NCBI GenBank assembly: GCA_048940445.1 | Contig: JBHLON010000007.1 | Coordinates: 1 to 64,000, forward strand | Length of the DNA: 64,000 bases | From: Promethearchaeota archaeon | Lineage (GTDB): Archaea; Asgardarchaeota; Lokiarchaeia; Sigyniarchaeales; SOKP01 | Direction of reading: 5' to 3' | Notes under the pieces: generated by a model | The model's input: the letters and a program-made list of their open reading frames with translations, nothing else | The model's database searches: none | What the model was told of the DNA's origin: nothing | Shown here: piece after piece, positions 38,330 through 56,860 of the stretch | How the letters are laid out: each line of letters opens with the position of its first letter | How positions within the stretch are numbered: the first letter of the stretch is position 1 | Made by a program: the position numbers and the translations under genes

Positions 38330-38619
38330 GTTTGATGTCGCACTCTTAGATTTTAATTTTTTTCAAATATTTGTTTTCTTATAATAATTTCTTAAGTAAT
38401 GTATTAAATTAAATTTAACCTATAAGAATATTTAAAATTCATTATTTTATCAAGATTTCTCTCAAAAGGTTGCAAATAATTTATAATAATAAAAAAATAT
38501 GTTATATCCTATAATCAAAATAAATAATTTGCCAAGTTAAATTAAAAACATAATTTGTTTAAGTAGCTTGTTTAATAATATTTAAACTAAATGGAGTTTT
38601 ATATTTAAAATATTGATTC

Positions 38620-40293
38620 TTGAGAGTGATTTTCATGATTAAAAATCCTAAAATCAAAAAATATTTTCTGTTTATTTTTATAATATTACCATTAATTTTG
38701 CTAAATCCATTTATTCTCCAATTTAACTCTATTCAAGTAAGAGATTATAATCCTAAAAAGGAAGGTGTAAAAAGTTCTTATGTTGTATCCCATAGTGGTT
38801 CATGGTTAAAAAACTCAAATTTTGATACTACTATTGTTCCATGGTTTCCAAGTATAAGCGGTGATTCCTCAGATGTGAATGCTTCCTACTCTCCTGGTCA
38901 GGCAAATTTGGAAATTACTGGTGATCAAAGAACTTTTTCTGAAATTTCTGGAACACCTACTGAAACAGACTGGCATAATGTTACTAATCCACTTTTTCCG
39001 GCATTACCCGATAATTACGGAATTGATAGCTATGGCTGTTGGGCAAATCATACATGGATTGATCCAACAGATCCTAATCAATCTCCTAGTATTCATTGGG
39101 AAAGAAATGTTACTATGCCAGTAAATATGGCTGATTATGAGATAACTTCCGCTTCAATTTCAGCGGTTTATAACGCAACAGTCACAGCCTATCCAGGAGG
39201 AGCAGGATCTCCAAGTAATAATTATGGTGTAGAGGTGCCTGGTGATCAAGTAGGTTCTAATACTCAATATCAAAGGGATTATGATAATGTAAGATTTTAT
39301 GTTTTAGTCTCTGATTTAGAGAATAATGAAAGCTATGAAATAGCATGGTATCAATCTATTGATTTGGGAAAAGATTCAGCAGGTGCTTATGATAGTATTG
39401 CGGATTCATTTATGAATACGGTTGTTAATCAAACCTTGATTTATTATTTGAGTTCTCTATTTGAACGTGATAATTTTCACTTTAAAATAACACTTGGGAT
39501 AAGAATTAAATGTGTTGATAATTGGACTTATGATCGCGATCGCTGGGACTCTCTTCGGATTAAATCATGTAATTTAAGTTTCACTTATGAAAAAAAAATT
39601 GATAAATTTACTACTGTCTCATGGAATCAAATTGGGAATCAAATTACTGGAGATAACGTTTATATAACAGGAGCTAACCTAACTTTTAAATATAAAATTG
39701 ATCAACCTTGGCCTGAAATTCTTTCACCAAATTCTGAGCTTATTGTTTTGATAAACAATAATTCACACAGTGAAACAATTAATTTAAATTTGGCAACCAC
39801 AACCTTTCAGGAAGCGAAAACAGAAGGTTTTGATGTGGAATATCTAATCCTGAAAGATGTAAATATCTCTCTTTCTATAGAGCTTTATTTAGCTGACGAT
39901 TTTTTGTTGAATCGAACAATTACGGTCTCTTTAGATGATGTATTCCTTGAGATCAGTTATATCACCGTGTATCGTGAATTTTTATCTGAACCCGAAATAT
40001 TTCGGTTATTATTAATATTAGCATTAGTAGCTGCTGCCGCTGTGGGAACTTACTTTATATTATATCAACGAATATTAAAGTATCCTTTAGCTGTTAGAAA
40101 AGTAAGAAGATATAGGAGCTCTCTAAATAAAGCAGAGGCTCCCAGTTCCTCCATAGCGGATTCCGGATCATCATTTAATAAGATTTACAACAATGAGTTA
40201 AATAAGTCATCAAAATATTTGAAATTAAAAACCTCCGGAGAAATAAATAAATCAAATATGATAAGAAAAGAAGGAGGAGAGGGTTTAAAATGA
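38620..40293 (+). CDS. Membrane-anchored surface glycoprotein, paralog type A, with conserved cytoplasmic tail
   Basis: N-terminal TM, Asn/Trp-rich extracellular domain with many N-x-S/T sequons, C-terminal TM then YQRILKYPLAVRKVRRYR. Confidence 0.8.
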   Translation: MRVIFMIKNPKIKKYFLFIFIILPLILLNPFILQFNSIQVRDYNPKKEGVKSSYVVSHSGSWLKNSNFDTTIVPWFPSISGDSSDVNASYSPGQANLEITGDQRTFSEISGTPTETDWHNVTNPLFPALPDNYGIDSYGCWANHTWIDPTDPNQSPSIHWERNVTMPVNMADYEITSASISAVYNATVTAYPGGAGSPSNNYGVEVPGDQVGSNTQYQRDYDNVRFYVLVSDLENNESYEIAWYQSIDLGKDSAGAYDSIADSFMNTVVNQTLIYYLSSLFERDNFHFKITLGIRIKCVDNWTYDRDRWDSLRIKSCNLSFTYEKKIDKFTTVSWNQIGNQITGDNVYITGANLTFKYKIDQPWPEILSPNSELIVLINNNSHSETINLNLATTTFQEAKTEGFDVEYLILKDVNISLSIELYLADDFLLNRTITVSLDDVFLEISYITVYREFLSEPEIFRLLLILALVAAAAVGTYFILYQRILKYPLAVRKVRRYRSSLNKAEAPSSSIADSGSSFNKIYNNELNKSSKYLKLKTSGEINKSNMIRKEGGEGLK

Positions 40294-41870
40294 AAATACT
40301 ATCAAGAAGAGGCAAAAAGTTTCTCTATATGTTCCTTTTTTTCACTCTAGTAGGAATTTCAACTCTAGTCTATAACTCTCAAAATTTAGTGATATTTGAC
40401 AATGAAAACTTAAATCTTCATTCTTCTGATATAGTTACAAGAACTCGAGAGTGGATAAAGAATGCTGATTTTTCATATCCAATAGAACCATGGTATTCTC
40501 AAGCTTCAGGTGATATATCAGACACTGCCGTTGGATTTAGTCCTGGGGAGGGATATTTTAAAGTAATAGGTGAGGAGTATACATTTTCAGATATTTCAGG
40601 AACGCCATTGAGTTCTAATTGGACAAGGGTTCATAATCCTGAATTTCCAGCATACCCTGATACAGCAACAATCAATTCAGGCGGATGCTATGTCAGCCAT
40701 CAATGGGCAGAATATGCTGATCAATCTCCGAGTGTAAATTGGGATAGAAACGTCAGCATGCCAATTGATATGTCAGATTACATTATCACATCGGCATCAT
40801 TAACAGCAATAGTGAATGGAAGTGTTGATGTTAATGTAGAAGCTCCTGGTGATTCTGCAACAGATCACTATACATGGGATTATGCCAGATTCTACGTCCT
40901 ATTATCAGATTTATCTAAAAGTAAAAAGTATGAGATTGCACATTATCAAACTGTTGATTTAGGGAAAGATGGTCCTCCAGCAATCACTCAACTAAATGAT
41001 ACATTGATGACAACAGTTTCAGAAAATGATTTGAAATTTTATTTAACCTCTGTTTTATCAAGTGATTTCCAGAATTTTACTATAACATTAGGAATAAGAA
41101 TCTGGTGTGAAGATAATCGCCTAAGTGATCAAGATGATTGGAATTATTTATATATAAATTCATGCTCTCTCACATTCACTTATCAAAAGAAAGTAGATCA
41201 GAGATCTAGTGCTTCTTGGAATCAGATAGGAGATAGGATTAGTGGTCAAAACGTTTCTATAGTAGATGGAAATCTTCAATTTAAATATAAGATTGATCAA
41301 TTATGGCCCATGGAATTATCTACAAACTCTAGATTAAATATTTTAATCAATAATAACACTTTATTAGAAAATATTAAATTAATTACTGCAACTTCAACAT
41401 TTCAAGATGCTAAGGCTGGAGGTTTTGATGTAACGAGATTAATTCTAAAGGATGTCAATATCTCATTAAGTATAGAGCTCTTTTTAGGTGACACGTTTCC
41501 ATTAGATCATAATTTTACAATATCCATAACGGATGTATATTTAAGAATAATTTATACTGAATTTGTTCCAGAACGTGAAGAACAGCCTTGGTTCTTTGCA
41601 GGTTTGTTTATAATATCTGCGATCGCAGCAGCAGTATTGACTGGATTATTAATAGCATATGCAAAGGTATGGAGATTCCCTATTCCAATTAGAAAGATAC
41701 GAAAACATAAAAAAGCATTAACCGATGAAAAAGCTCCCGATGTTAAAATTATAAGTCGTGAGGCTGCTTTCAAGAGAAATTACTCTGGAGAAATGGACAA
41801 AACAACTAAAATTCTTAAAGGGCCCCCTCTCAATGGAAAAATTGAAAAGGAAAAGTTATTTAGAAAATAA
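40290..41870 (+). CDS. Membrane-anchored surface glycoprotein, paralog type A
   Basis: Clear paralog of 38620 (WIKNADF, QSPSVNWDRNVSMP, DLGKD, FKYKIDQ); ATGA overlap; tail YAKVWRFPIPIRKIRKHK. Confidence 0.8.
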   Translation: MKILSRRGKKFLYMFLFFTLVGISTLVYNSQNLVIFDNENLNLHSSDIVTRTREWIKNADFSYPIEPWYSQASGDISDTAVGFSPGEGYFKVIGEEYTFSDISGTPLSSNWTRVHNPEFPAYPDTATINSGGCYVSHQWAEYADQSPSVNWDRNVSMPIDMSDYIITSASLTAIVNGSVDVNVEAPGDSATDHYTWDYARFYVLLSDLSKSKKYEIAHYQTVDLGKDGPPAITQLNDTLMTTVSENDLKFYLTSVLSSDFQNFTITLGIRIWCEDNRLSDQDDWNYLYINSCSLTFTYQKKVDQRSSASWNQIGDRISGQNVSIVDGNLQFKYKIDQLWPMELSTNSRLNILINNNTLLENIKLITATSTFQDAKAGGFDVTRLILKDVNISLSIELFLGDTFPLDHNFTISITDVYLRIIYTEFVPEREEQPWFFAGLFIISAIAAAVLTGLLIAYAKVWRFPIPIRKIRKHKKALTDEKAPDVKIISREAAFKRNYSGEMDKTTKILKGPPLNGKIEKEKLFRK

Positions 41871-42071
41871 ACAATAAACTGTAGAAAGAGTAAAAATCCA
41901 TAATTAACTTTAATTTTTTCTTTAAAGCTAATAATTATAAAATATCTTTAACATTTTTCTTCAATCATCAAAATTTAATATAATATTGTAATTCGCTAAA
42001 AAAAATTTAAATCAAAAGTTCCTATAATATTATATTTAAATAATACGAAAAAATTAGGAAAGGGTTGAAAT

Positions 42072-45000
42072 ATGAAATTGATAACTTTTTTCATAAAAAA
42101 AAGAAAAATTCGAAGAATTATGGCATTGTTCTTAATGATAGGGATTTTTATCTCCTTAAATGTCGGAACGAATATTAATAACAACTCTTTAAGAAATCAA
42201 ATTCAGAATAAAGTTGATCAAGATTATTTGAATACACAAGATTTAGATCCATCAAATACATTCACAGGTATAGGAGAAGCATGGAATATTACTCATTGGG
42301 CAAATCGAACGGACACAGGGTTAGCAGTTAATTTTGCCGAGGGCGAAAATGCTATATTAAAATTTCCATTATATTCAGAATGGGAAGGATACAAGCTTGA
42401 TGCAAATATTTTAAATTTCTATGATACAAGAAATTGGAATAATGGAACTCTTAATTATGGTACTGATAATGGTTATAGTACAGGAGCAAATGATTCTATG
42501 TGGATTCAAAATACGTTTCAAAATTGGACTTTTAATCAAAATGTAGTCGGACAAGGAAATGTAATGTCGGGAAATTATATCGATAATACAGAAATCTCCC
42601 CTAATTCGTTATCTCATGACTGTCTGGAATTAAGAATGGCGGGAAATCCTTATACTGGTAGTGGTGGTCAACGATATTGGTATGATAATGGGGATGGATG
42701 CTGGTGGGATACAATGTTCTATATTCCAAGAGGACAAGTTTTAAACAATGTTTTAAAATTCCAAATTAATCCCATCCATCTTATAAGTTTTAATTCATGG
42801 GAATTAAGAATTTATATTAACAATATTCGTGTATTCAGCCTTGGAATATACACATTAAAAGGAATGGGTATAAATGAATGGCATAATTTTTCAATTCCTC
42901 AAGGAATCTGGACGAATACTACTAATGTCTTTTCATCTGGAAATTTAAACGATACAATCATACCCTTAAGAGTAGCTCTTGAATATACTGCAACAAGTGC
43001 GGGATATGGGTTTGAAGACGGAGAAAATATTGATTACCAACAAATACTATTCGATAATGTAGAATTAGTTACAACAGCTGAAGCAAATCCTTCTGATCTA
43101 GGATTAAAATTGAATAATACTAAAATTTCAGATGAGAATTGGGGTAAAGGAAGCGTGGAGTTAAATGGAGAATGGCAGGGAGTCAATAATAATTTAGATT
43201 TATTATTTTCAACTGATGATATAAGTAAATTAGGCTCTTATAGTGTTAATTTTTTTACTGATGTAAATCTATTTGTTTTAAAGAATTTACCAGAAAGTAA
43301 TTATGAAACTAACATAGCGTCTCTTGGTACAAAAGTTATTGTTAAAAATAGTTCCTCTGTAGAATGGTCATGTTATGGGAGAGTCAGTGTACCAACTAGA
43401 TATGTAGAAAATTTAATGAGTGTTGTGGTTCCTCAAGATGTAAATATAACTGCAGTATATGATCCGCAAAATCCAAATTTAAATATCTTGAATCAATGTG
43501 ATAATAGTTCGGCAGGAATACTGTTAATACCTATTAATAGCATTTCAGCTACACCAGATGGATTTTGGAGATTTTTAGCTAAATCACCAAATTATTGCGA
43601 GGATTCAATAATATATGGCAATACTACAGGTCCTTGGGTTGAGGATTACGAATTTTTAAGTGGTGATTTTGTTAATATCACTGCCAAAATTACTAATTCA
43701 CCCATAATCACGTCATATATTCAGAACACTAATGCATTGCTTAATGTTAGATTTCCAAATGGTACTATCTGGGCAGATCATACCCAGATGTCACAAGTTG
43801 ATTCAAACGGTATGGTTTATTTTAACACTTTCCAGATTCCAAATAACCCACCTAATTATGATGTAGGATTGTATGACGCAATAATAACTTGGAATAATTC
43901 ATATTCTAATTTTGGATTTAATGAATCGGGGATTATTTATAAGCAATTTAAAGTTGTTCATGAATCGGTATTAATTCCCGAAGAGAAGTTTTACGAAGAT
44001 AATTTTGAAAATTCAATTCTTAACCTCAAGGTAACATTCCATGACTTCATAACCAATGCTCCCATCAGAAATGCTAAATTATATACATATGACTTTATAA
44101 ATCCTGGAATTAAGAGATATTTTAGTGAAACTAGTCCTGGTTATTATTTTCTTGAATTTAATCTAAGTGGAGCTAGCTTTGGAAATAACTCTATAACGAT
44201 ATATGCCGAATCTGCAAATTATGAAGACAAACAAGTGGTTGTAGATATAGAGGTAATACAAAGAACTAATTTGAATGTAGATAATGATTTTCTCGATAGC
44301 GTTCAATATAAAAGTAATTTCACAATTCAAGTAGACTATATTGATAATGTAACTGGATTAGGTGTAGATCCCGGTGAACTTTATACTGATTGGGGTGGTG
44401 ATAATCATTTCTCAAGAATATCTCAAGGAAAATATAATTTAATATGTAATGCATCAGGTCCCGGTTATTCTGCTGGGAATCTTTATTCATTTAACATTTA
44501 TGCTAGTGCATATCAATATGAATCGCAAATGAAAACTGTTCGCGTATTTATAACGGAACTAGATTCACAAATTGACTTAAAATTAAATAGCACGCCCACA
44601 GAACCGAATGCAGTATATATCGTTCAAGTTTGGCAACAAGTAAACATCACCATTCGATATAGAGATTCTTTTGGAAATCCTATCCATGGAGCATTAGTAA
44701 ATCTTACTAGCCAAGAGTTTACAAAAGAACTAAAAGAGGATTTATTGCATAATCAGTACACAATTTTTTTAAATGCGACTGATCTTGGACAAGGAATTGA
44801 TAACTTAATAGTAACAGCTGAAAAGGTAAATTATAAACCTAATTCAATACCTTTTATTTTCGAGATTATAGAAAGGCAAACCTATTTCAATATATACATT
44901 AATGGAAATAATAAAACCAACGATCCATTCGAATCAGTGGTAGTAACATCAATGGTAAATATAACAGTTGGTTATTATGATAACTTGAGTAAATTCATAT

Positions 45001-45821
45001 CAGGAGCAATGGTTTCTTTATCGGGTGATTATATAGGTACTCTGAATGAAAGTACTACTTTTCATCAATATACCATCATTATCAATACAGAAGATTTAAG
45101 TATTGGTCTTAGGCAACTCAAACTTACTGCAATTCGACCTAATTATGAATTGCAATCTAAGGTTATTAGAATACAAGTTCAAAGAATCACAGCACAAATA
45201 AATACTACTTCAGGATCACCAATCATTATTGCTAGTCCCGGTGAAAGTGTTAAGTTAGAAGTCATTCTTAATAATGTAGATTTTAGCACACCAATAGTAG
45301 GAGCATCGGTAAACTATAGTTGGGCTTTTGGAAATGGTGTTTTTACGGATCTAAACAATGGAATCTATGAAGCCGTTTTACCAAACGTTAACGAAGGTAC
45401 TTACACAATTGTTGTCTCTGCCTATTTTGGAGATAATTATGAGTTTCATAGTTTTGAAATAACCTTAACAGTAATACAAGCTCCAGGAGAATTATGGATT
45501 GTCTCATTTGCTTTAATTTGTACTGCTATTGCTGCCGCTGCATTAATAGGTTATCTTATCCTTTATATGAAAGTCTTGAAATATCCTAAACCTGTTAGGA
45601 AAGTCAGAAAGTATCGCCGTACATTAATGAGCAAAAAGCATCCAAGGAAAGCAATTGAATCAAGAGAAAGTTCAATTAAATCTATATATGAAAACCAGAT
45701 TTCTGACTCAAAAAAATATCTTAAAGGAAAGCCGAGTGGTGAGCAAATGAGCATTGATAAACTGATCAAGAAAAATCCAGAAGATGAATATCCTAAAAGC
45801 ACTGGAGGTGAAATGGAATGA
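42072..45821 (+). CDS. Large membrane-anchored surface glycoprotein, paralog type B (Ig-like stalk)
   Basis: N-terminal TM, NITHWANRTD, HDCLELRM, TPDGFW, repeated Ig-like segments, C-terminal TM then YMKVLKYPKPVRKVRKYR. Confidence 0.8.
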   Translation: MKLITFFIKKRKIRRIMALFLMIGIFISLNVGTNINNNSLRNQIQNKVDQDYLNTQDLDPSNTFTGIGEAWNITHWANRTDTGLAVNFAEGENAILKFPLYSEWEGYKLDANILNFYDTRNWNNGTLNYGTDNGYSTGANDSMWIQNTFQNWTFNQNVVGQGNVMSGNYIDNTEISPNSLSHDCLELRMAGNPYTGSGGQRYWYDNGDGCWWDTMFYIPRGQVLNNVLKFQINPIHLISFNSWELRIYINNIRVFSLGIYTLKGMGINEWHNFSIPQGIWTNTTNVFSSGNLNDTIIPLRVALEYTATSAGYGFEDGENIDYQQILFDNVELVTTAEANPSDLGLKLNNTKISDENWGKGSVELNGEWQGVNNNLDLLFSTDDISKLGSYSVNFFTDVNLFVLKNLPESNYETNIASLGTKVIVKNSSSVEWSCYGRVSVPTRYVENLMSVVVPQDVNITAVYDPQNPNLNILNQCDNSSAGILLIPINSISATPDGFWRFLAKSPNYCEDSIIYGNTTGPWVEDYEFLSGDFVNITAKITNSPIITSYIQNTNALLNVRFPNGTIWADHTQMSQVDSNGMVYFNTFQIPNNPPNYDVGLYDAIITWNNSYSNFGFNESGIIYKQFKVVHESVLIPEEKFYEDNFENSILNLKVTFHDFITNAPIRNAKLYTYDFINPGIKRYFSETSPGYYFLEFNLSGASFGNNSITIYAESANYEDKQVVVDIEVIQRTNLNVDNDFLDSVQYKSNFTIQVDYIDNVTGLGVDPGELYTDWGGDNHFSRISQGKYNLICNASGPGYSAGNLYSFNIYASAYQYESQMKTVRVFITELDSQIDLKLNSTPTEPNAVYIVQVWQQVNITIRYRDSFGNPIHGALVNLTSQEFTKELKEDLLHNQYTIFLNATDLGQGIDNLIVTAEKVNYKPNSIPFIFEIIERQTYFNIYINGNNKTNDPFESVVVTSMVNITVGYYDNLSKFISGAMVSLSGDYIGTLNESTTFHQYTIIINTEDLSIGLRQLKLTAIRPNYELQSKVIRIQVQRITAQINTTSGSPIIIASPGESVKLEVILNNVDFSTPIVGASVNYSWAFGNGVFTDLNNGIYEAVLPNVNEGTYTIVVSAYFGDNYEFHSFEITLTVIQAPGELWIVSFALICTAIAAAALIGYLILYMKVLKYPKPVRKVRKYRRTLMSKKHPRKAIESRESSIKSIYENQISDSKKYLKGKPSGEQMSIDKLIKKNPEDEYPKSTGGEME

Positions 45822-48800
45822 ATTTGCAAAAGAATAGGATCACTAAAAAACAATTAAAAGTTATTGTGCTTATACTATTAACTTTTAACCTCTCTCTCCT
45901 AAGCTATCTTGTGAATATTAATGATATAATTTCTAATAGTATTGATGTAAGAGAAAATTTAAATCCAAAAAGTCAAGATATTTCTAATGATAACATCTAT
46001 ACCGGAATTGGAGCACCTCTAAACATCACTCATTGGGCTAACAGGACAGATGTAGATCTTACAGTTAATTTCGATGAAAGTGAATGGGATACGGCAAATA
46101 TTCCACTAGGAAGCGGATGGGATGCATATAAATTAAATATTGATGTGGATGGATTGAGAGATAATCGAAATTGGATTAATGGGTCCTTTTCATATGGTAT
46201 TGATGATGGAAGTGATACACCCGGTGCTGATGATACAAATTGGATAAGTAATAAGTATGAAAATTGGACATTTGGATTTAATGACACGGGACTGGGAACT
46301 AACTTAATGAGTGGAAATTATTTGAGTAGCGTTGGAGGTCATGATTGTTTAGAGTTACGTATGGATAGTAATGATACAGTTTTATCAGGCTGGAGTACAT
46401 ACGATCCAAATGATCGATTATGGTGGAATTCTTCAGTACTAATTCCAAGAGGTAAACTTCTTGACAGTGTTTTAAATTTTGAATTGTATCCAAATCACCT
46501 AGCAGGATTTAATTCTTGGGCTTATGCCATATATATTAATGATATTTGTGTGTATTCAATTGGTACATATACATTATTGCAATATGGGCAAAATATTTGG
46601 CATAGTTTCTCCATCCCGCAAGATATCTGGATAAATACTACTAATGTATTTCCAAATGGACCAATCAATAATCAATTGGTTAAACTAAGGGCAGATTTAG
46701 AATGTGTTGGAGGAGGAAATTATTCTGGATTCACTAATGAAGATTATCAGAGGTTATATTTCGATAATCTTGAACTTGTAACCCTAACTCAAGCAATGCC
46801 TTCTAATCTTGGTTTGAGTGTTAACCAAACAGTTGTTCAAGATATCGATTGGGGTAAAGGAAGAGCTATTCTTTCAGGTAATTGGCAGAATACTTTCATT
46901 ACTGCAAATTTCAGTTCTAATGATGTTGGTCTTTTGGGTCCATATTCTGTGAATCTAAAAACTGACTTAAATTTATTTGCATTAAAAGATGTCCCAGAAA
47001 CTAATTATGAGACAAATACAGCATCAATAGGAACAAATTTTCAAGTAAATAACAATACCAATGTAATTTGGGAATTCTATGGCTTTATTGCAGTTCCTAC
47101 GGGTTATTCGGAATCACAAATGAAAATCGAATTTCCTAGTGATATGTCAATTACTTCAGTATTTGCACCAGATGAACCCTCTACTAATATCCTTAATTTA
47201 TGTGACGATTCAATCTCGGGTATCTTATCAATCCCAATTAATACATTAACATCTACCCCAGATGGATTCTGGAAATTTAAGGCTGTCTCCCCTAATTATT
47301 GCGAAGAATTATCAATATATGGGAATTCAACTGGAACATGGCTACCCAATAATGAGTTTAAAGCAGGTGATTTCATAAATATTAGTGCAAAAATTACAAA
47401 TTCACCTGTTATATCTTCCTATATTCAAAATACTATAGCTCAACTTCAAATAAGATTTCCAAACGGTTCTTTATGGGCTCAAGAAATTCAACATGAAATG
47501 GTAGCCTTGAATGGATTTACTCATTTTGATCCAATAAGAATTCCCTCAAATACTCCCAATTATGAGGTAGGAGAATATGAAGCGATTGTTTCATGGAATA
47601 ATTCTTTTTCTCTTTATGGTATGAATGAAACGGGAATAATCTATAAAACATTTCGAGTAATTCATTATTCTAAGTTAACACCTGACCAAAATTATTTCGA
47701 AAATTATTTGGAAGGAACGGTATTAAATCTTAAAATTTCATTTAATGATAAAGAAAATTTTGCCGCGATTGAAAATGCAATAGTATATACATATAATTTT
47801 ACACATCCGAGTATTGTGCAATATTTCAATGAAGTAAGTCCAGGATTTTATATCTTAGAATTTAATACAATAGGGGGATTAGCAGGTAATAATACGGTTA
47901 CTATTTATGCAAATTCAACCAATTATGTTAATACTCAAACATCTATCACAATAGACATTATAAAGCAAACGACTCTAACCGTTGATAATGATTTTTTTAC
48001 CAATGTTCCCTACAAATCCAACTTTTCTATACAATTTAATTATACTGAATATTATACAGGAGGAGGCATCGATCCAACATCGCTTTCTACAAATTGGGCT
48101 GGTGATTTTCAATTTAAACGTATTACTCAAGGGATGTACAATTTAGTATGTAATGCTTCTGGACCGGGATATGATCCAGGAAAACTTTATACTCTCTTAA
48201 TTAATGTAGCAGCAAATAATCATGTTCCTCAATCAATTCCGATAAGAGTCCTTATTAGTGAGTTAAATTCTAGAATAAAACTCTATATTAATGGCACTGA
48301 AATCTTTAATGATGAACTAATTTCAGTAGAAGTTTGGCAAGAGATTAATGTAACTGTAAAATATACAGATGCACATTCAAATCCTTTGAGCTTAGCATCA
48401 GTTAAGCTAAGGATTGGTGAATTTACGAGAGATATTCCAGAAATTCCTTCATTAGAGCAATATAGTATATTAATCAATGCAACTGAATTAGGACAGGGAA
48501 TTGATTATTTATCGGTTTATGCTAATAGCACTTTCTACAATCCGCAATTCATTCGAGCGATTCTTCAAATTACTGAAAGATTAACACAAATGCGTATATT
48601 CTTAAATAATGTAGAAAAAACGAGTGATCCGTTTATTAATATACCCATTGGTGAAATGCTAAATATTACAATAAAATACCTAGATACTCAAGGACACTTC
48701 ATTGATAATGCGCTTCTCTCATTGTCTGGTGACTATTCAGACAACTTAACTGAGAATCCCGGATTGGAGCAATATACTATATTAATTAACTCCACTGATT

Positions 48801-49516
48801 TGAAAATAGGAGTAAAAATAATAACGATTTCTGCTGAAAAGTTTGACTTTCAATATAAATCAGAGGATTTGAGAATTGTTGTTAATAGAATTCAAGCCGA
48901 AATTATATCAGAACATGTTCAATATATTGTGAGACCAGGTGCAAATGTGAAATTAGAAGTAAAATTGAACAACACAGATTTTGGGGGTCTAATTTTGGGC
49001 GCTAATGTCAAATATTCAGGAGTACTTGGGACAGGAGATTTAATTGATTCTAATGGAGATGGAATATATGAAGCTGTATTAGAGAATATCCCATTAGGAA
49101 CATATAAAGTCTATATTACTGCTTTTGCAGGGGATAATTATGAATTTAAGACTTTAAGTATCACTATAACTGCAATTATTCCTGAAGCAGAGTTAACATT
49201 ATATTTAATATTATTATTACTCGCAATAGGTATTACCGCAGCTATTGGAATTTATATATATCTTTATCGTAGGGTACTAAGATTCCCTAAGAAAGTTAGA
49301 ACTGTAAGGAAGTATGCCAAAACTTTAAACAAAGGAAGAGCCCCAAGAGCAGAAATTAATAGTCGAGAAAAGTTAATTAAGGATGTGTATCAAGATGAAG
49401 TGGATAGAAGCACTAAAATACTAAAAAGGCGTTCAGCTATTCCCGTTGAAAAACCAGATAAATTTATTAAAAAGTTACCTCAAGAGAAACTCGATGAAAA
49501 TATCGAAACTAAATAA
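45818..49516 (+). CDS. Large membrane-anchored surface glycoprotein, paralog type B
   Basis: Colinear paralog of 42072; ATGA overlap with GGAGGTG upstream; tail YRRVLRFPKKVRTVRKY. Confidence 0.8.
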   Translation: MNLQKNRITKKQLKVIVLILLTFNLSLLSYLVNINDIISNSIDVRENLNPKSQDISNDNIYTGIGAPLNITHWANRTDVDLTVNFDESEWDTANIPLGSGWDAYKLNIDVDGLRDNRNWINGSFSYGIDDGSDTPGADDTNWISNKYENWTFGFNDTGLGTNLMSGNYLSSVGGHDCLELRMDSNDTVLSGWSTYDPNDRLWWNSSVLIPRGKLLDSVLNFELYPNHLAGFNSWAYAIYINDICVYSIGTYTLLQYGQNIWHSFSIPQDIWINTTNVFPNGPINNQLVKLRADLECVGGGNYSGFTNEDYQRLYFDNLELVTLTQAMPSNLGLSVNQTVVQDIDWGKGRAILSGNWQNTFITANFSSNDVGLLGPYSVNLKTDLNLFALKDVPETNYETNTASIGTNFQVNNNTNVIWEFYGFIAVPTGYSESQMKIEFPSDMSITSVFAPDEPSTNILNLCDDSISGILSIPINTLTSTPDGFWKFKAVSPNYCEELSIYGNSTGTWLPNNEFKAGDFINISAKITNSPVISSYIQNTIAQLQIRFPNGSLWAQEIQHEMVALNGFTHFDPIRIPSNTPNYEVGEYEAIVSWNNSFSLYGMNETGIIYKTFRVIHYSKLTPDQNYFENYLEGTVLNLKISFNDKENFAAIENAIVYTYNFTHPSIVQYFNEVSPGFYILEFNTIGGLAGNNTVTIYANSTNYVNTQTSITIDIIKQTTLTVDNDFFTNVPYKSNFSIQFNYTEYYTGGGIDPTSLSTNWAGDFQFKRITQGMYNLVCNASGPGYDPGKLYTLLINVAANNHVPQSIPIRVLISELNSRIKLYINGTEIFNDELISVEVWQEINVTVKYTDAHSNPLSLASVKLRIGEFTRDIPEIPSLEQYSILINATELGQGIDYLSVYANSTFYNPQFIRAILQITERLTQMRIFLNNVEKTSDPFINIPIGEMLNITIKYLDTQGHFIDNALLSLSGDYSDNLTENPGLEQYTILINSTDLKIGVKIITISAEKFDFQYKSEDLRIVVNRIQAEIISEHVQYIVRPGANVKLEVKLNNTDFGGLILGANVKYSGVLGTGDLIDSNGDGIYEAVLENIPLGTYKVYITAFAGDNYEFKTLSITITAIIPEAELTLYLILLLLAIGITAAIGIYIYLYRRVLRFPKKVRTVRKYAKTLNKGRAPRAEINSREKLIKDVYQDEVDRSTKILKRRSAIPVEKPDKFIKKLPQEKLDENIETK

Positions 49517-49555
49517 TAATAATTAATATTTTAATATTTATTTCTTTTTTATTCT

Positions 49556-49856
49556 ATGAATTTAGAAAGATAAATCATGCTTCTTCAAGCTAACATACTC
49601 AGGAAATTTGATTGAGTTATCATCTGGTAAAGGATTAAATTATTTCAATCTATTTGACATTATTGCTATATTTATCCCTAATCAAAAAAGAATGTATGTT
49701 TGAATTGTTAAAAAGACAACACAAAGTCTAAGAAGTCATATTCCAAGAAAACCTCAGATCTTCTTCAAAGAATACCCTGAATTAGAGATATTGCGTAATA
49801 TCACAATCGAAGTTGGTTTTGAACCTACTGAATTTTTTGTTATCAAATTTGGTTAA
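49556..49856 (+). pseudogene. Degenerate copy of the gelsolin-like domain of 53517..54563
   Basis: Frame from 49566 reads FFKLTYSGNLIE..LFDII..NQKRMYV*IVKK..LRSHIP..YPELEILRNITIEVGFEPTEFF, aligning with FKLKYSGDLEE..LFDIL..NQKRLYIWVSKK..LKSHIP..YPQFKVIRNIIIEQDLEPANFF. TGA 49701 replaces the Trp; ATG 49556 is out of frame; truncated at TAA 49854. Confidence 0.8.
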
Positions 49857-50036
49857 TGGAGACTATTTTTGTTTTTGAATTAATTGTAAATTCTTGATCT
49901 CTATTGAGAAAAGTATAAAACTTAAACTATAAATTATTAATATCAACATATTATCATAAAAAATTGATTAAGGTTTTTTAATCAATATTGTATCCGAAAT
50001 ATTTTAATAGATAAATTAAGGAGGAGACATAATTTA

Positions 50037-53000
50037 ATGGCTTCAATAACAAAAGAAAATAAAAAGGTATTTATCAGTGTTATAATTTTTTGCTTATTTA
50101 TAACTTTAGGTTTATATATCTTCTCAAATTACCAAAATAGTTACTCCAAATACAATCAAAATAGAATGTTATTATTGAATCAAGGGGGATTTCTTGGCCA
50201 GTGGTTTAGTGAATCACATCAAGAACAATGGATAAATAATCCCGATTTTAATAATAGTATAGGATGGACTTCTGAATATAGTGGAGATCTGTCGGATGTA
50301 GGAACTTATATTAGTGGTGGAAGTGCTAGCTTTCAAGTAATTGGAGCGAGTCACACAACAACATTAATATCGGGCACACCTAATTCGTCAAAATCCCCAA
50401 ATTGGCATAATATTACTAATCCTGAAATTCCTGTCTATCCGACTCATGGTCATAGAATTGATCAATTTGGATGTTTTGCATCTCATTACTGGGCAGAAAA
50501 CTTAGGGACAACGACTAATGCATATCAAAAGACTAGTGTTCATTGGGAAAAAATCATTACCACACCATATAATATGTCTGATTATATTATAAATAATGCT
50601 TCTCTCTCAGTATTGGTAAATGCAACTGCAAAAGCTTACACCGGAGGAAATACTGAGGATAAGTGGAGTTGGGAGGGCGTAGAAGTGTATGGGGACGCGT
50701 ATGCAAGATTTTATGAGGGTGATTACATACGTTTTTATGTGAGACTTTCAAATCTAAATAAAGATGTGAGCTTCAAAGTTGCCCAATATCAAACTTCTAC
50801 TTTAGGGCAAGATGGATCAAGCATTAATGGTAGTTATGACTATTTAAATGATACTTTTTTCGAAGCTAACAACATGAATGATTTAATTTTTTATCTAAAT
50901 CAGGTATTGATTAATGGTGACTTTCAAAATTTTATTATCACTTTGGGAATGGAATTTAATTGTGAAGATAATCAAATTACCGATCTTGACGAATTTACTG
51001 CTGCTTACATAAAATCCTGCAACTTTACAATTAGCTATGTAAAGAGAATAAATCAACTAACTTCCGCATCATGGAAATATCTAGGGGAACAGATTAATAA
51101 TAAAGGAGGAATCGTGAGAGTAACAGACGCAAAATTATATTATGACTATAAAATCGATAAATTATGGTCTAGTAATTTATCTCCAAACTCTGAATTAAAA
51201 ATTTTAATTAATGATTTAGAACATGATGAAACAATAAAGTTAAGTAGTGCAGGATTAACATTCAATTCTGCGAAACAAAATGGGTTTGAAATTACGAGGT
51301 TGATTCCACCTTATGAGAGAATTAATATTTCAATACAAATGGTTCTTGCGGACGAATTTCAACTTAGTGAAAATTATACAATAGGCATAGATAATGTAAT
51401 TCTGGATATATCCTATGATTTATTCTTTCAAGCTCAACTAAACACATTATTTCAGACTTTACTATTACTAGCTTTAATTACCTTGGGTGGGTTAACGTTT
51501 TACTATGTATATTATCGTAGAGTTTTACGCTTTCCCAAAGCAGTTAGGAAATTAAGAAGATTTAGAAAAACATTGAATAAGGAGACCTCTCCTGATGTTA
51601 AGGTTATAGATCGTAATAAAGCTTTTAAAAATCAATACAAAAAGGATATAAAACCTACATCGAATCTCTTAGGAATACAATCTACCCCAAAAAGAGAGGA
51701 TCGGAATCTTACTAGTAATAAAAAACAACTAATTATAATCATATTCTTAATATTTGGTTTACTTTTTAGCCCAATATTATTTGGAACTAGAGTTACTGGC
51801 TATAAAAACGAGATCAGGCGGGAAGGGATAACTTTAACTCAAAATACTCCACCAGAACAATATCAAAGAGAGACTCGGATAGCTCAATGGATTCAAAATT
51901 CTCAATTCAACACAGAAGATAGATGGATTAGTCTACTAGATGGTGATATGTCAGACATAGGTGCAAATATTAGCGGGGGTCATGCAAATTTTAATGTAAT
52001 AGGAAATTCTGGCATAACAGAGTTTTCTGAAAATGGATTAAGTAATAATTGGACTAGAATAGAAAACGAGGATAATATTGTATTACCTGATGTGATAGCG
52101 GGTGGGGGATATGGAATGGATGATCGTGGATGGTATGCTTATTATAATTGGCCAGATAATCAACCCCAATCGGTAAAAGTCCAGTGGATGAAGAATTTTA
52201 GCATGAATGTAAACATGTCGGATTATTATATCACTTCAGCTTCACTAAAGGCTTGGATTAATGGAACTGCCCAGGCTACTTCTATGGATAATGGGGGGAT
52301 AGATCGCCCAGGAGACTCTCTTGTTAATAACCCAAGTAATGAACTTCAAATAGCAACCGGAGATTTTGCAAGATTTTTCATTTTAATTTCTGATCCAGAA
52401 GCAAGCAGAAAATTCACTGCAATTGAATATCAAACTGATGATTTAGGGAAAGATGGGCCACCAGCAATCACTCAACTAAATGATACGCTAATAACACCCA
52501 TCAATGAAGAGACTCTAAAATTCTTTCTTGAAGAAGCATTACATTCTGATCATCAGAATTTTGCTATTACTTTAGGGATATACATTTGGTGCGAAGATTC
52601 AGGACATCCTGGAGATCAAGACAATTGGCAGAGTTTAGTAATTAAAAATTGGAGTTTATCTGTCTCATATGAAAAAAAAATTAATCAATTCTCAACAATC
52701 ACTTGGAAATATTTAGGAGATCAAATTGAGGCAGGAGGTTATGAAATAGAGATTACTCAAGCCATACTTAATTTTGATTATCGAATTAACCGATTATGGC
52801 CAACCTCCGCCTCACCAAACTCAGAGATGAGAGTTTTAGTTGACAATGTTGATTATACTGAAACATTAAAATTAGGTAGAGCGGAAACTAGTTTTACAAG
52901 AGTAAGTGAAACTGGATTTGATGTGACTGAATTAATTCCAAATGATAAAGAGATTAATGTGTCAATTCAAACATATTTAGCTGATGAATTTAGATTATCA

Positions 53001-53399
53001 GAAGATATTACTATTTCAATTGATAATGTGATACTCCAAATAACCTATGATGTGTTCGTCCCCGTTGAAGAATCGTATTTATTTCCACTATTATTTGCCA
53101 TTGCCGCATTAGTGGCATCGGGAGTAACCATCTACATTATTTATTATCAGAAAGTACTTAAATATCCCATCCCGGTAAGGAAAGTACGAAAATTCCGTAA
53201 AACCTTAATGAAAGAGGAAACACCAAACAAACCTATTAAAGCACGTGAACGAGCATTTGAAGATGTATATCAAGAAGAATTAAAGAAATCATCGAAGTTT
53301 ATAAGGGGAACGCCAGTCAATGGGAAATTACTAAGAGATAAAATGTTAAGTAGAATTAACAATAGAACACTAAGCCCATCAGATGAAAAAGCCGATTGA
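50037..53399 (+). CDS. Tandem fusion of two type A surface-protein units (TM-ecto-TM-tail-TM-ecto-TM-tail)
   Basis: Two full type A domains, each followed by a TM and tail (YRRVLRFPKAVRKLRRFRK; YQKVLKYPIPVRKVRKFRK), with an internal signal-anchor LIIIIFLIFGLLFSPILF. Confidence 0.8.
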   Translation: MASITKENKKVFISVIIFCLFITLGLYIFSNYQNSYSKYNQNRMLLLNQGGFLGQWFSESHQEQWINNPDFNNSIGWTSEYSGDLSDVGTYISGGSASFQVIGASHTTTLISGTPNSSKSPNWHNITNPEIPVYPTHGHRIDQFGCFASHYWAENLGTTTNAYQKTSVHWEKIITTPYNMSDYIINNASLSVLVNATAKAYTGGNTEDKWSWEGVEVYGDAYARFYEGDYIRFYVRLSNLNKDVSFKVAQYQTSTLGQDGSSINGSYDYLNDTFFEANNMNDLIFYLNQVLINGDFQNFIITLGMEFNCEDNQITDLDEFTAAYIKSCNFTISYVKRINQLTSASWKYLGEQINNKGGIVRVTDAKLYYDYKIDKLWSSNLSPNSELKILINDLEHDETIKLSSAGLTFNSAKQNGFEITRLIPPYERINISIQMVLADEFQLSENYTIGIDNVILDISYDLFFQAQLNTLFQTLLLLALITLGGLTFYYVYYRRVLRFPKAVRKLRRFRKTLNKETSPDVKVIDRNKAFKNQYKKDIKPTSNLLGIQSTPKREDRNLTSNKKQLIIIIFLIFGLLFSPILFGTRVTGYKNEIRREGITLTQNTPPEQYQRETRIAQWIQNSQFNTEDRWISLLDGDMSDIGANISGGHANFNVIGNSGITEFSENGLSNNWTRIENEDNIVLPDVIAGGGYGMDDRGWYAYYNWPDNQPQSVKVQWMKNFSMNVNMSDYYITSASLKAWINGTAQATSMDNGGIDRPGDSLVNNPSNELQIATGDFARFFILISDPEASRKFTAIEYQTDDLGKDGPPAITQLNDTLITPINEETLKFFLEEALHSDHQNFAITLGIYIWCEDSGHPGDQDNWQSLVIKNWSLSVSYEKKINQFSTITWKYLGDQIEAGGYEIEITQAILNFDYRINRLWPTSASPNSEMRVLVDNVDYTETLKLGRAETSFTRVSETGFDVTELIPNDKEINVSIQTYLADEFRLSEDITISIDNVILQITYDVFVPVEESYLFPLLFAIAALVASGVTIYIIYYQKVLKYPIPVRKVRKFRKTLMKEETPNKPIKARERAFEDVYQEELKKSSKFIRGTPVNGKLLRDKMLSRINNRTLSPSDEKAD

Positions 53400-53516
53400 T
53401 AAAAAGAATAAAATGATTTAAAATACATATTTATTTATCTATCTTTAAAGAAAAAATAAAATTAATTATTTAATTTATCTATTTAATCTTAAAATAGGGT
53501 CAGAGGGCTCTCAAAA

Positions 53517-54563
53517 TTGATTAATGAAATAAAAGTATTTAAATTAAAGTATTCAGGAGATTTAGAAGAAATTTCAACAGAGAATTTATTATCAAATTTT
53601 ACGTTGTTTGACATTTTAACTTTTTATGATATAAATCAAAAGCGATTATATATCTGGGTTAGTAAAAAAGTTTCCCATACTTTAAAAAGCCATATTCCTT
53701 CTATTCGTGAGATATTTCTAAGGAATTATCCCCAATTCAAAGTCATACGCAATATAATAATAGAACAGGATTTAGAACCAGCAAATTTTTTTGATATTAT
53801 AGGAATTTCAGAAAAAAGATATAGAGATCACTTTAAACAATTAGAATTTAAACTATTGCCTGTATTATCTGAAATATATCGATTAAAAGAGAGCATAGAT
53901 AAATATTTTGAGTCAGAGAATTATAAAGAAGCGGCGAATATAGCTCAGAAAGTTTTAAAGTTAGCTCAAGAAATCGACGATTATTCACTCGAAAGGGATA
54001 TGCTTAATTTTATTGAGGAAATGAAATTGAGGGCCAAAGCTAAGCAGAATGTAAGAGAAATTGAAACTGAAGCAGAAATAAAGTTAAAAGTTTTTGAAAA
54101 TCTAATTAGAGCTGAAAATTACAAAGAAGCCCATAAGATAGCGCAAGATTTTAAAGATAAATATCAAAATAACTTTAATTTGCATTCAATTCAATATGCT
54201 CAAGACTTACTACTAAAAGATGAAAATATTGTATATAATTTGAGAGAAGAACAGCGGGTATTAGAAAAGAATTTTGAAGTGATAGGAAAAAAAATTGAAA
54301 AATTGATTGAAGCCAAAAAGATACTTCATACTGGAAAAATGATAAAAGAAGCTGAAATTTTAGTAGATAAAATAATTGATAGGACAACTTTAAACAAATT
54401 TGACTCAATAAAAAGAAGGTATCAAGCGATCAAGATAAACCAAAAAAATGCTCTCGAGGAATTAAGTAAAAGCGCTCTTAGTCTTATTGATAAGCGTAAA
54501 TTTTTAGATGCGATAGAAATATTCGACCAGATTATCGATCTTTTAGAGAATTCTATTCAATAA
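53517..54563 (+). CDS. Gelsolin-like domain + helical (TPR/coiled-coil) protein
   Basis: RLYIWVSKK and IEQDLEPANFF resemble gelsolin Y(I/V)WxG and ExxEPxxF motifs; repeated ENYKEA helices. Confidence 0.6.
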   Translation: MINEIKVFKLKYSGDLEEISTENLLSNFTLFDILTFYDINQKRLYIWVSKKVSHTLKSHIPSIREIFLRNYPQFKVIRNIIIEQDLEPANFFDIIGISEKRYRDHFKQLEFKLLPVLSEIYRLKESIDKYFESENYKEAANIAQKVLKLAQEIDDYSLERDMLNFIEEMKLRAKAKQNVREIETEAEIKLKVFENLIRAENYKEAHKIAQDFKDKYQNNFNLHSIQYAQDLLLKDENIVYNLREEQRVLEKNFEVIGKKIEKLIEAKKILHTGKMIKEAEILVDKIIDRTTLNKFDSIKRRYQAIKINQKNALEELSKSALSLIDKRKFLDAIEIFDQIIDLLENSIQ

Positions 54564-54569
54564 ATAGTT

Positions 54570-55730
54570 ATGAGGGTATCACTAATGGATTCCAAAGAAG
54601 AAAAATTAGATGAAAGGAAAAAAATTGTTATAATTTCAGAGATTGATGAATTAAAGGTAATTGCACACAATCATTACTTAATGGGAAAATATGATGATGC
54701 AATTAAAACAGCAAAAGATATAATAGAACTTGCAAGACAGGCAGAACTAAATTCTATAGTAAAGGAACAGCAAAAATTCATATCTAAAGTATATCAACTC
54801 AGCGAAAAAGGAGATCAAAAGTCCATTCTCATTGATGATTTTAAGGATTTAAAAAAAAATTTCGAAAACTTATTAAATAGTAATAAAATTTATGAAGCAC
54901 ATGAATTAGTAAGAAATTTTAATGAAAAACATAATAAAGTTATCAATTTAAGCCTAAATACCGAAATCCAAGATCTTATTAATAGAGAAAAAAAAATTTG
55001 GGAACTTTATTCTACCAAACAAAAAGATATAAGAAGAAAATTAGAGCCACTCGAAATTCAATTAAATAGTTATCTTAGTACGAATAATGTCATCCTAGCT
55101 AATGATGTAATGAAAAAAGCTAAAGGGCTCTTGAAAGAAGTTACAGATGAATCTATAAAAGAAAAGTGGGATACACTAGAGGTTATTTTTATTGAACTCA
55201 AAAAGAAATATGACTTTCTTGAAAAGATTGAAAGTTTGATGCGAGAGGTTACAAAACTCACAGATAAATATGAATTTGACCAAGCTAATAATTTATTAAG
55301 ATTAATCAATCAAATTGTTGAAGAAAAAAGCTTAGGAAACTTTAAGAAAGAAATAAATTTAAAAAAGAGGTCTATTCTTGATGCAAAACAGAAATATAAT
55401 AAATTAATGCAGGATATTGAACATCTCGAAATTCTAGTTGAAGAAAGTATAAAGAAATTTTTATTTAATGATGCTATAGATAATTGTAATCAAATAATAA
55501 AAATAGCGAGATTTATCGGAAAAAAAAATTATGTTGATAAATATTCTGAATACATCAATGATATCAAGAAAAAAATCAGAGATTTTAATGAGTTTGAAAA
55601 ACTTCGGATTCTTATAATCAAACTTAATTCAGAAGCTATAAATGCCTTAAACAAGGAACATTTTGAGTTAGCTTTAAAAAGATTTAAAGAAATTAAAGAA
55701 AAATTAACATTTTTTATTAATGAACAATAA
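54570..55730 (+). CDS. Helical TPR/coiled-coil protein related to the C-terminal part of 53517
   Basis: YDDAIKTAKDIIELARQ, IYEAHEL..F..K and FNDAIDNCNQIIKIAR repeats resembling those of the upstream gene. Confidence 0.6.
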   Translation: MRVSLMDSKEEKLDERKKIVIISEIDELKVIAHNHYLMGKYDDAIKTAKDIIELARQAELNSIVKEQQKFISKVYQLSEKGDQKSILIDDFKDLKKNFENLLNSNKIYEAHELVRNFNEKHNKVINLSLNTEIQDLINREKKIWELYSTKQKDIRRKLEPLEIQLNSYLSTNNVILANDVMKKAKGLLKEVTDESIKEKWDTLEVIFIELKKKYDFLEKIESLMREVTKLTDKYEFDQANNLLRLINQIVEEKSLGNFKKEINLKKRSILDAKQKYNKLMQDIEHLEILVEESIKKFLFNDAIDNCNQIIKIARFIGKKNYVDKYSEYINDIKKKIRDFNEFEKLRILIIKLNSEAINALNKEHFELALKRFKEIKEKLTFFINEQ

Positions 55731-55840
55731 TTAATCCTTTATTCTTGGATTAATAACTAATTTAAATTTACACTTGAATCTATACTTTATTTAGAAAATT
55801 TTTAAATAGTTGAGAATTGAATAAATAATTCTGAGAAGAA

Positions 55841-56266
55841 TTGATCCAAGAAATAATTATTTTATCTAATACAGGTATTCCATTATTTAATTATACTATA
55901 GATGATAACCTCAATAAGAAATACGATTATCGGTTAATTGCGAGTTATTTTGACCAAATTTGCCGCTTTACTCGCTATAAATTTAACCAGAGTCTAGTAA
56001 CCTTAAAAATAGGTAAAAATGAATTCTATTTTTATACTTCTCCCGATAAGGTTTGTCATTTAGTTATTAAAACTGATAATAAAAAGATGAATAAAAAAAC
56101 TGTAGATCTATTTGCCAAGGAAATATTGGATAAATTCAGTTCTAAATTTAAAATGAAATTAATTGAATTTAATGGCAATATCAATGTATTTAAATCATTT
56201 ACTAAGGATATTGAACGGTTAATCAAAACTAAAAATCTTAAATCAATTACATCAAGACTTTTTTAG
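55841..56266 (+). CDS. Longin-like domain protein
   Basis: 141 aa; MIQEIIILSNTGIPLFNY start and F..KF....FNGN...F..F C-terminal pattern typical of longin/sigma-adaptin-like folds. Confidence 0.55.
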   Translation: MIQEIIILSNTGIPLFNYTIDDNLNKKYDYRLIASYFDQICRFTRYKFNQSLVTLKIGKNEFYFYTSPDKVCHLVIKTDNKKMNKKTVDLFAKEILDKFSSKFKMKLIEFNGNINVFKSFTKDIERLIKTKNLKSITSRLF

Positions 56267-56806
56267 ACAAGCCAATATAATAGCATCATAAAATTTGCTA
56301 TTTAAATTTAAATATTCTTTTAATTGACCTTCTTCTATAAATCCAGAGCTTTTAAAAGTAGAAATTGAACGAACGTTTTCTAAAGCGATATGAGCCTGAA
56401 TTCTATTTAGTTTGAGGTGGAAAAAAGCAATAATTTTTATCAAATTTAGAGTTTTTTTTCCAAAACCTTTTTCCCAATAATTAGGAATTAGCCATACCCC
56501 TACTTCGGCTCTTTTATGTTGCCAACTTATGTTCCATAAGCTCACAGATCCAATTTTAAGAGGTTCATTTATTTCTCGGAGTTCGATTATATAATTAAAT
56601 TGAATATAACTATCCCAATATTTTAAATAGTTTTTAACGATACGTTTTGCATGATCAAGAGAGTATAAAGGGCCTAACGAGAGATAATCCGTTATTTCCT
56701 TAATTTTTAAGCTTTTAAAAAAAAAAGAAATATCATCTTTGGAAATTTTTCTTAAATAGAGATTATTATCATTAATCTCTTCGATTAAGTCGATATTTGG
56801 CAACAT
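56252..56806 (-). CDS. GNAT acetyltransferase, RimJ/RimL family
   Basis: LYLRKI, AEVGVWL..YWEKGFG, LNRIQA..N..S..GF.EEG.L. Confidence 0.85.
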   Translation of the reverse strand: MLPNIDLIEEINDNNLYLRKISKDDISFFFKSLKIKEITDYLSLGPLYSLDHAKRIVKNYLKYWDSYIQFNYIIELREINEPLKIGSVSLWNISWQHKRAEVGVWLIPNYWEKGFGKKTLNLIKIIAFFHLKLNRIQAHIALENVRSISTFKSSGFIEEGQLKEYLNLNSKFYDAIILACLKKS

Positions 56807-56860
56807 TTTTTATCCAAAAATTTAATTTTTGAAGAAAAAAATAGAAAAAAGATATAACAA

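Follow-up and report, generated by a model that had tools for sequence, protein, structure and literature searches.

We describe here a locus for surface proteins in a Promethearchaeota archaeon, contained in a window of 64,000 nucleotides that forms the first 64 kb of the 92.7-kb contig C84 (JBHLON010000007.1) of a 3.64-Mb genome with 93% completeness (G000). The GC content of the window is low (~30%). Judged by its kinship to two closed genomes of 4.4 and 6.0 Mb, the organism is a member of Lokiarchaeales, from another family than the cultured species. An array of five genes encodes proteins with two ectodomain types of no detectable similarity that carry the same kind of transmembrane (TM) helix and tail; it is preceded by a divergent pair of genes for two cytoplasmic proteins, A5 (418 aa) and F726 (726 aa), and followed by a trio encoding a gelsolin-domain protein (GelX), its helical paralog (X), and a longin-domain protein. 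Sequence comparison across Asgard genomes shows the tail to be inherited and located together with A5, and in Lokiarchaeia also with F726; we give about even chances to the interpretation that these form an Asgard-wide cassette in which the tail docks the upstream pair. The original prediction had sought the partner of the tail in the downstream trio and had left out the upstream pair, which are the genes accompanying the tail nearly everywhere. In the following, f1 denotes the family of the window's genome (68 genomes) and g1 its genus, f8 is the Odin-like family, and other f, g, G, and L numbers refer to families, genera, genomes, and loci, respectively.

The array consists of five co-oriented genes on the forward strand with six units, and each unit is composed of an N-terminal signal anchor, an ectodomain rich in N-glycosylation sequons (1.8 to 3.0 N-x-S/T per 100 residues), a TM helix, and the tail. 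Four units belong to type A and two to type B. The genes are A1 (557 aa, 38620..40293), A2 (526 aa, 40290..41870), B1 (1,249 aa, 42072..45821), B2 (1,232 aa, 45818..49516), and AA (1,120 aa, 50037..53399). The listed start of A1 is a TTG (38620); the ATG at 38635, right before the K-rich, hydrophobic signal anchor, is the likelier start. An ATGA overlap joins A1 to A2 and likewise B1 to B2, a hint that translation is coupled inside each pair. AA is a fused double protein comprising two complete A units in one reading frame (anchor-ectodomain-TM-tail-anchor-ectodomain-TM-tail), with two tail matches in frame and 37 to 42% identity of both halves to A1/A2; it is the same A-A pair minus the stop. 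BLAST identities are 37 to 47% for A-A pairs and 48% for the B-B pair, and no BLAST similarity is detectable between the type A and type B ectodomains (E value > 1), so that the same tail is indeed borne by two distinct ectodomain types. B1 shows Ig-like repeat matches (Big_1, PKD, CarboxypepD_reg) that are weak and below the Pfam cut-off. For the type A ectodomain, the ESM Atlas search returned Promethearchaeota hypothetical clusters only; a MAM-domain lead from the searches with this ectodomain and A5 (0.76) was too weak and was not used.

The motif of the tail was matched by a regular expression at exactly the six positions predicted (nt 40063, 41658, 45564, 49265, 51513, and 53145), and a hydrophobic helix precedes all six matches, confirming its placement directly after the TM helix. 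The tail of A1 lies at 40045..40266, and the other five are located at 41640-41861, 45546-45767, 49247-49468, 51495-51716, and 53127-53348, all on the forward strand. Its core, [FL]-[KR]-[YF]-P-x-x-[VI]-R-K-[VIL]-R-K, is basic, nearly invariant, and located directly after the membrane. When the six units are aligned, the residues Y, P, R, R, L, P, and Y never vary, and the resemblance reaches ~70 residues past the membrane; the module is thus made up of the TM helix, the basic juxtamembrane core, and ~50 further residues. Because the first tail of AA lies between two membrane passes, it fits a cytoplasmic location of the tail. When a profile of TM helix plus tail was run against the whole 3.64-Mb genome, strong matches were obtained at the six array sites only (E values of 1e-38 to 1e-42), accompanied by one weaker seventh copy on contig C22. 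The pattern is far beyond chance.

The original prediction had also considered that the tail might be a generic positive-inside signal, and this is ruled out by its restriction to few proteins. A crude census of long open reading frames with N- and C-terminal hydrophobic segments in the same genome yielded ~60 candidates; ~55 of these anchored, type I-like proteins end 3 to 10 basic residues past the helix, whereas the shared tail is found on 7 proteins of the genome and, among the candidates of the census, on those of the array only. The profile of the tail alone (A4), searched against 1.84 billion representative proteins, matched only 345 clusters at E ≤ 1e-3, of which 169 reached E ≤ 1e-10. 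Almost without exception, the match lies at the C terminus of a protein of 500 to 2,000 residues or occurs twice in a doubled protein. In archaeosortase signals of the PGF-CTERM type, which form the extreme C terminus of the protein, a short motif precedes the TM helix and only a few basic residues come behind it. The tail was rejected as such a signal, since its motif follows the TM helix, is part of ~70 residues, and in its first copy in AA is internal, before the second anchor.

A5 (37073..38329) and F726 (34867..37047) are encoded on the reverse strand, and an AT-rich divergent intergenic region of 290 bp (38330..38619) lies between the pair and the array. A5 was found in all genomes of f1 (68/68), f2 (7/7), f8 (4/4), f12 (76/76), and f26 (3/3) and in 18 of the 19 of f17; it is scarce in f10 (1/28) and f27 (1/21), not found in f19 (0/11), and nearly missing in f21. 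The tail core was detected in 63/68 genomes of f1, 6/7 of f2, 4/4 of f8, 40/76 of f12, 13/19 of f17, and 3/3 of f26, and the profile search of genomes gave no tail core in f10 (0/28), f27 (0/21), or f19 (0/11). The families with the tail are nested within those with A5: no family lacking A5 has the tail.

The two are also neighbors. By coordinate comparison, A5 lies within 6 kb of ~50 tail loci in ~45 genomes, including the Odin-like G061 and G113. In a closed 1.4-Mb Odin-like genome and in f26, the tail gene is directly followed by that of an A5 homolog of ~362 aa; no F726 was seen in the stretches examined of the Odin-like and f26 tail loci. In two closed genomes of the MK-D1 family (L097 of G044 and L098 of G055), homologs of A5 and F726 are arranged upstream of the tail gene on one strand, and F726 is separated from the tail gene by 15 nt or overlaps it. 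F726 homologs adjoin tail genes at L097, L098, L099, L100, and L125 to L128, and A5/F726 homologs recur at C22, at the giant-protein loci of the genus, in g18, g20, and g22, and in another family of the class. The C22 locus (L007:1-2528, on a 3.7-kb contig of the window's own genome) encodes the C terminus of a type B-like Ig-repeat protein, then a 375-aa A5 homolog, and then a TrmB-like gene; its tail reads YPP-x-VRKIRKL, and the locus shows synteny with the one at 2.63 Mb in the closed genome G044 (E value of 8e-43). The 375-aa protein had been considered as a longin, which hhalign did not support. Moreover, the subtype of A5 tracks the subtype of the tail: an A5 of ~362 to 375 aa accompanies tails of the pattern YPP-x-[VI]RK[IL]RKL, and one of 417 to 423 aa accompanies those of the pattern YP-[KIV]-x-[VI]RK[VI]RK[YF].

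The ectodomains and the make-up of the array vary around this constant part. Within the genus the tail is carried by at least three ectodomain types, namely A, B, and giant proteins of 1,676 to 2,417 aa. Tail units are grouped in arrays, up to seven on a single contig, in 33 of the 36 g1 genomes. The order is A1-A2-B1-B2-relic-AA-GelX in the window (the relic being a gelsolin-domain pseudogene described below), AA-A1-A2-B1-B2-GelX in G028, and A1-A2-AA-GelX, with no B genes, in G017.

A5 has matches in the database to >100 clusters of the same length with 76 to 97% identity, all of them from Promethearchaeota and labeled "hypothetical protein." It has no match in Pfam or, by profile search, in the PDB, and its ESM Atlas matches are Promethearchaeota hypothetical clusters only. 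By eye, an α/β N-terminal part is followed by two winged-helix-like segments, and weak winged-helix hints came from HTH_69 and HVO_A0261_N. An NPRL2/3-type (GATOR1) reading of A5 was also considered; Pfam NPR2 (PF06218) has no match in the genome at E ≤ 1, and a comparison of A5 with the longin profile (A3) in hhalign returned a probability of 1.6%. F726 consists of a CxxC N terminus, a TrmB-like winged helix-turn-helix (HTH), a coiled-coil/apolipoprotein-like region of ~280 aa, and a strongly conserved C-terminal domain. The TrmB family (PF01978) matches 4 of 8 F726 members with a best E value of 7.5e-6, and the window's copy has no match at E ≤ 0.1; in the PDB, TrmB (3qph) aligns weakly with the F726 profile (E value of 0.0097) over profile positions 84 to 182, covering the HTH and the first part of the coiled coil. 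In Pfam and NCBIfam scans, none of the eight genes of the finding had a match above cut-off. A search of the literature for a conserved tail of Asgard surface proteins found nothing relevant; within the papers searchable, the tail/A5/F726 cassette is without description, and it has no curated family. GelX and the longin, in turn, each add a new member to a known family.

In the mechanism we favor, large, fast-diverging, sequon-rich ectodomains are mounted on one constant TM-tail module, and the tails would serve as docking sites for the upstream A5/F726 pair. From their place in the cytoplasm, A5 and F726 would then organize, sort, or report on the surface proteins. The trio downstream is a separate Lokiarchaeales module of the actin-regulator type, which may cooperate with the array in g1 and g22 and is not an obligatory partner of the tail.

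Several observations weigh against this interpretation. The genomes counted are relatives and therefore not independent samples. In ortholog comparison, conservation of the whole tail does not exceed that of the ectodomain; only the core of ~20 residues stands out. A5 is present in f13, f18, and f24, where no tail is detectable; conversely, distant tail-like matches in f12, f17, and a second Odin-like locus have no A5 in the examined stretch. The gelsolin block follows the array in g1 in every species where the contig allows: an ortholog of GelX (31 to 70% identity) comes directly after the last tail gene in ~30 species, then X, then the longin. The block adjoins the array again in g22, in the order array-longin-GelX-X. 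This adjacency in two genera exceeds what chance would give, and a real lineage-specific coupling may lie behind it. Finally, with the TrmB-type HTH of F726 and the shared divergent promoter region, the upstream pair could be plain transcription regulators.

According to that last alternative, which we regard as unlikely, A5 and F726 would regulate transcription of the array, and the tail would be kept on other grounds, e.g., to bind lipids, to insert into the membrane, or to pack the surface proteins laterally. The TrmB HTH of F726 and its 3qph match, the divergent layout around the 290-bp shared region, the winged-helix hints of A5, and the basic nature of the tail core next to the membrane are all compatible with it. 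However, the neighbors stay constant while the ectodomains change (A, B, giant, and Odin-type), and TM helix plus tail is the only constant part of the surface proteins; the A5 subtype tracks the tail subtype; A5 lies directly downstream in the same operon in the Odin-like genome and f26; and a coiled coil of 280 aa is atypical for TrmB regulators. Like TrmB of Pyrococcus furiosus (3QPH), F726 appears to begin with a winged HTH, with a coiled coil and then a globular domain on its C-terminal side, and it is divergent from the genes it accompanies. It differs by ~280 aa of extra coiled coil, the N-terminal CxxC, and a further C-terminal helical region, with Pfam matches near or below cut-off. 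In addition, F726 is inherited together with the tail of membrane proteins and not with genes of sugar metabolism. The sequence of the AT-rich spacers gave no reliable reading of promoters or terminators.

In their folds, the proteins of the downstream trio proved to be what had been predicted from sequence. GelX (348 aa, 53517..54563, forward strand) has a gelsolin domain in residues 1 to 96 followed by ~250 aa of helical hairpins and three-helix bundles. An AlphaFold2 (AF2) model built on a 28-species alignment has a predicted local distance difference test (pLDDT) value of 90, and the gelsolin fold of its N terminus was verified by VIA, where the Thor ProGel (7C2F) superimposes with a Z score of 11.7 and a root mean square deviation of 1.9 Å over 88/88 residues, followed by domains of adseverin, gelsolin, villin, and fragmin with Z scores of 9 to 11. 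Foldseek gave an E value of 8e-4 and a TM-score of 0.79 against 7c2f_B, with gelsolin-family proteins making up all of the top 50 matches, and the GelX family profile (A2) matched ProGel 7c2f_B (E value of 3.4e-5) and the Loki 2DGel 7whg_G (0.0067) in the PDB; Pfam Gelsolin does not match the protein at E ≤ 1. The helical part yields only generic three-helix bundles in VIA (GAT, CNOT3, the ArnB C-terminal domain, and designed proteins). A Sec23/24-like cargo coat of gelsolin, helical, and longin elements was dismissed, since the Foldseek top 50 and the listed VIA gelsolin-fold matches are actin-binding gelsolins and include no Sec23/24. The long helix of gelsolins usually opens with an acidic pair that belongs to the calcium site. 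In GelX, basic residues take the place of this pair.

Residues 99 to 347 of GelX are all helical in the model, and a single gelsolin domain followed by helices is the 1DGelX architecture (PMC7444086). The Asgard 1DGelX/ProGel proteins (Akil et al. 2020, PMC7444086; 7C2F) share with GelX the layout of a gelsolin/cofilin-type domain with a helical part behind it, with 23 to 24% identity in the superimposed domain; unlike them, GelX is always paired with a gelsolin-less X paralog and stands beside a surface array in two genera. Thor 1DGelX binds rabbit actin with a dissociation constant of 7.7 μM, nucleates and severs filaments independently of calcium, and is concentrated near internal membranes in human cells (PMC7444086). 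The gene after GelX (X, 386 aa, 54570..55730, forward strand) encodes an all-helical protein without a gelsolin domain; sequence comparison bears out that it is a paralog of the helical part of GelX, and it comes after GelX wherever GelX lies.

The last gene of the trio (141 aa, 55841..56266, forward strand) likewise turned out to encode a longin. Its AF2 model (pLDDT of 78) has the DSSP order β-β-α-β-β-β-α-α (β2-α-β3-α2); the closest VIA matches are a VAMP7-like longin (Z score of 13.1) and Sec22b (12.9), with a Foldseek E value of 1e-4, and sedlin, synbindin, and AP sigma/mu reach Z scores of 10 to 12, against only 7 to 8.5 for roadblock/MglB. Compared with the eukaryotic longins (VAMP7, Sec22b, TRAPP sedlin/synbindin, AP sigma/mu, and SRX) and the Loki Roadblock-Longin 8YQG (Z scores of 9.7 to 13.1 over ~120 to 130 residues), the protein stands alone, its identity is 10 to 17%, and its context shows no SNARE, GTPase, or adaptor. 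The scan for a GTPase gene covered the genes between 34867 and 60065 only and revealed none. There are several longin paralogs per genome, of which this protein is one. In another genome (G016, contig C87), a 294-aa fusion of a longin-like N-terminal domain to a Ras-Arf-Roc-type small GTPase (L102:2072-2953) is located 2 kb from a 1,181-aa tail protein.

The presence of a gelsolin-domain relic inside the array was likewise confirmed. It is a single-domain pseudogene (49581..49844, forward strand) with 47% identity to residues 7 to 94 of GelX (E value of 2.6e-20) and a match to profile A2 at 2.3e-35; a single TGA interrupts its frame where the Y-I-W strand has its conserved Trp codon, a start codon is missing, and the frame ends just past the domain. 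A recent duplication of the 5′ part of the GelX gene was rejected as its origin, since the DNA identity is only ~60%, and the relic is thus an old copy. A third gelsolin-domain sequence inside 11 kb is found at 59454-60065 (forward strand), 3.2 kb past the longin gene, where a 203-aa protein matches Pfam Gelsolin (PF00626; E value of 1e-9) over residues 22 to 80 before a helical tail; it is syntenic in G017 with 76% identity. Three metabolic genes in between (56252-59168, reverse strand), encoding a GNAT acetyltransferase, an enoyl-CoA hydratase (ECH), and a 3-hydroxyacyl-CoA dehydrogenase (HCDH), converge on the longin gene, and the GNAT gene overlaps the 3′ end of the latter by 15 nt.

That the tails dock GelX, X, or the longin and thereby couple the surface to lokiactin, in an integrin-talin-like manner, is an improbable explanation on present evidence. 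The gelsolin fold, the profile homology to actin-binding Asgard gelsolins, and the 1DGelX architecture speak for it, as do the gene order kept in g1, the renewed adjacency in g22, and the relic inside the array. The basic residues in place of the acidic pair of the long gelsolin helix speak against it, and so above all does the distribution of the genes. The GelX profile finds members in 49/68 f1 genomes (27/27 in g1, 12/22 in g18, 0/4 in g20, and 4/5 in g22) and in 6/7 of f2, and practically none elsewhere among the 301 Asgard genomes searched. In the profile search GelX is absent from 19 of the 68 f1 genomes, which have arrays with full-length tails; several of these genomes are 98 to 100% complete, with G213, G109, and G192 (99 to 100%) among them. 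Tail and GelX are thus not inherited together: the tail is found in 63/68 genomes of f1 and in other classes, including the Odin-like family, in which no member of this GelX family was found, and GelX is practically confined to Lokiarchaeales. For g1, where the adjacency is universal, a coupling to GelX may exist, yet it cannot explain the conservation of the tail.

Gene order gives a mixed picture. The synteny expected in relatives is kept in g1 and, with another order, in g22, and it is not kept in g18, g19, g20, g23, or f2. In g18, the orthologous array abuts the same GNAT/ECH/HCDH genes directly, with no gelsolin block between, and where GelX is present in g18, g19, and g23, GelX plus X lie on another contig or 190 kb from the array. 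In the two closed genomes of the MK-D1 family, GelX and longin occur without tail genes nearby. At two loci (L107:8103-13001 and L108:7924-12559), a GelX-like protein of 847 to 914 aa is followed by a tetratricopeptide repeat (TPR) protein of 684 to 693 aa with a C-terminal longin, matched by profile A3 at E values of 5e-12 and 2e-8. A Rosetta-stone link between X and the longin via these TPR-longin fusions was rejected, as X has no significant similarity to the TPR part. A divergent gene for a 1,487-aa SMC-like ATPase adjoins the GelX/TPR-longin locus in G044 and G037. By its distribution, GelX-X, often with a longin, is a self-contained Lokiarchaeales module that lies beside the array in two genera only. 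The downstream genes did not hold up as the conserved partner of the tail, and a surface-to-actin link through them is not established.

A further reading, likewise rather improbable, takes the tail as a signal for sorting or retention that general cell machinery recognizes, e.g., for targeting to protrusions or for ESCRT/ubiquitin turnover, with none of the neighboring genes encoding its receptor. Such a signal would agree with the short basic core and its conserved Tyr, Pro, and Lys, which resemble linear sorting motifs, with the adaptor sigma/mu-type longins as closest folds to the longin of the trio, and with the concentration of surface structures at curved membrane in cultured Lokiarchaeia (PMC9834061), but it leaves the near-universal adjacency of A5 unexplained, and only 7 of ~60 anchored surface proteins in the genome carry the tail.

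With tail and A5 taken as the cassette, a wider picture may be sketched tentatively, namely, a phylum-wide system of receptor tails and cytoplasmic adaptors in the eukaryotic style, in which exchangeable ectodomains would share one docking tail that brings A5 and the coiled-coil scaffold F726 to the inside of the membrane, and which in some Lokiarchaeal genera would be wired to 1DGelX/longin and actin; we consider it possible, with the odds against it. Integrin and cadherin receptors are similar in being single-pass proteins with a variable ectodomain and a conserved short tail, encoded here near a gene of an actin-regulator family. However, there is no relation to them in sequence or fold, and co-inheritance favors A5/F726; the likeness is one of layout and not of membership. 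The gene neighborhood alone is insufficient ground for reading the locus as an "archaeal integrin."

Cultured Lokiarchaeia have no S-layer and display complex surface structures over actin-filled protrusions (PMC9834061). For such cells, the locus points to candidates for surface proteins, the tail common to them, and two candidate partners in the cytoplasm that are highly conserved and unannotated, and homologous loci are available in two closed genomes of the MK-D1 family. It also gives the 1DGelX-type gelsolin a defined genomic context. If true, a receptor-tail system of this kind would be the first genetically defined link from the Asgard surface to machinery of the cytoskeleton or trafficking type.

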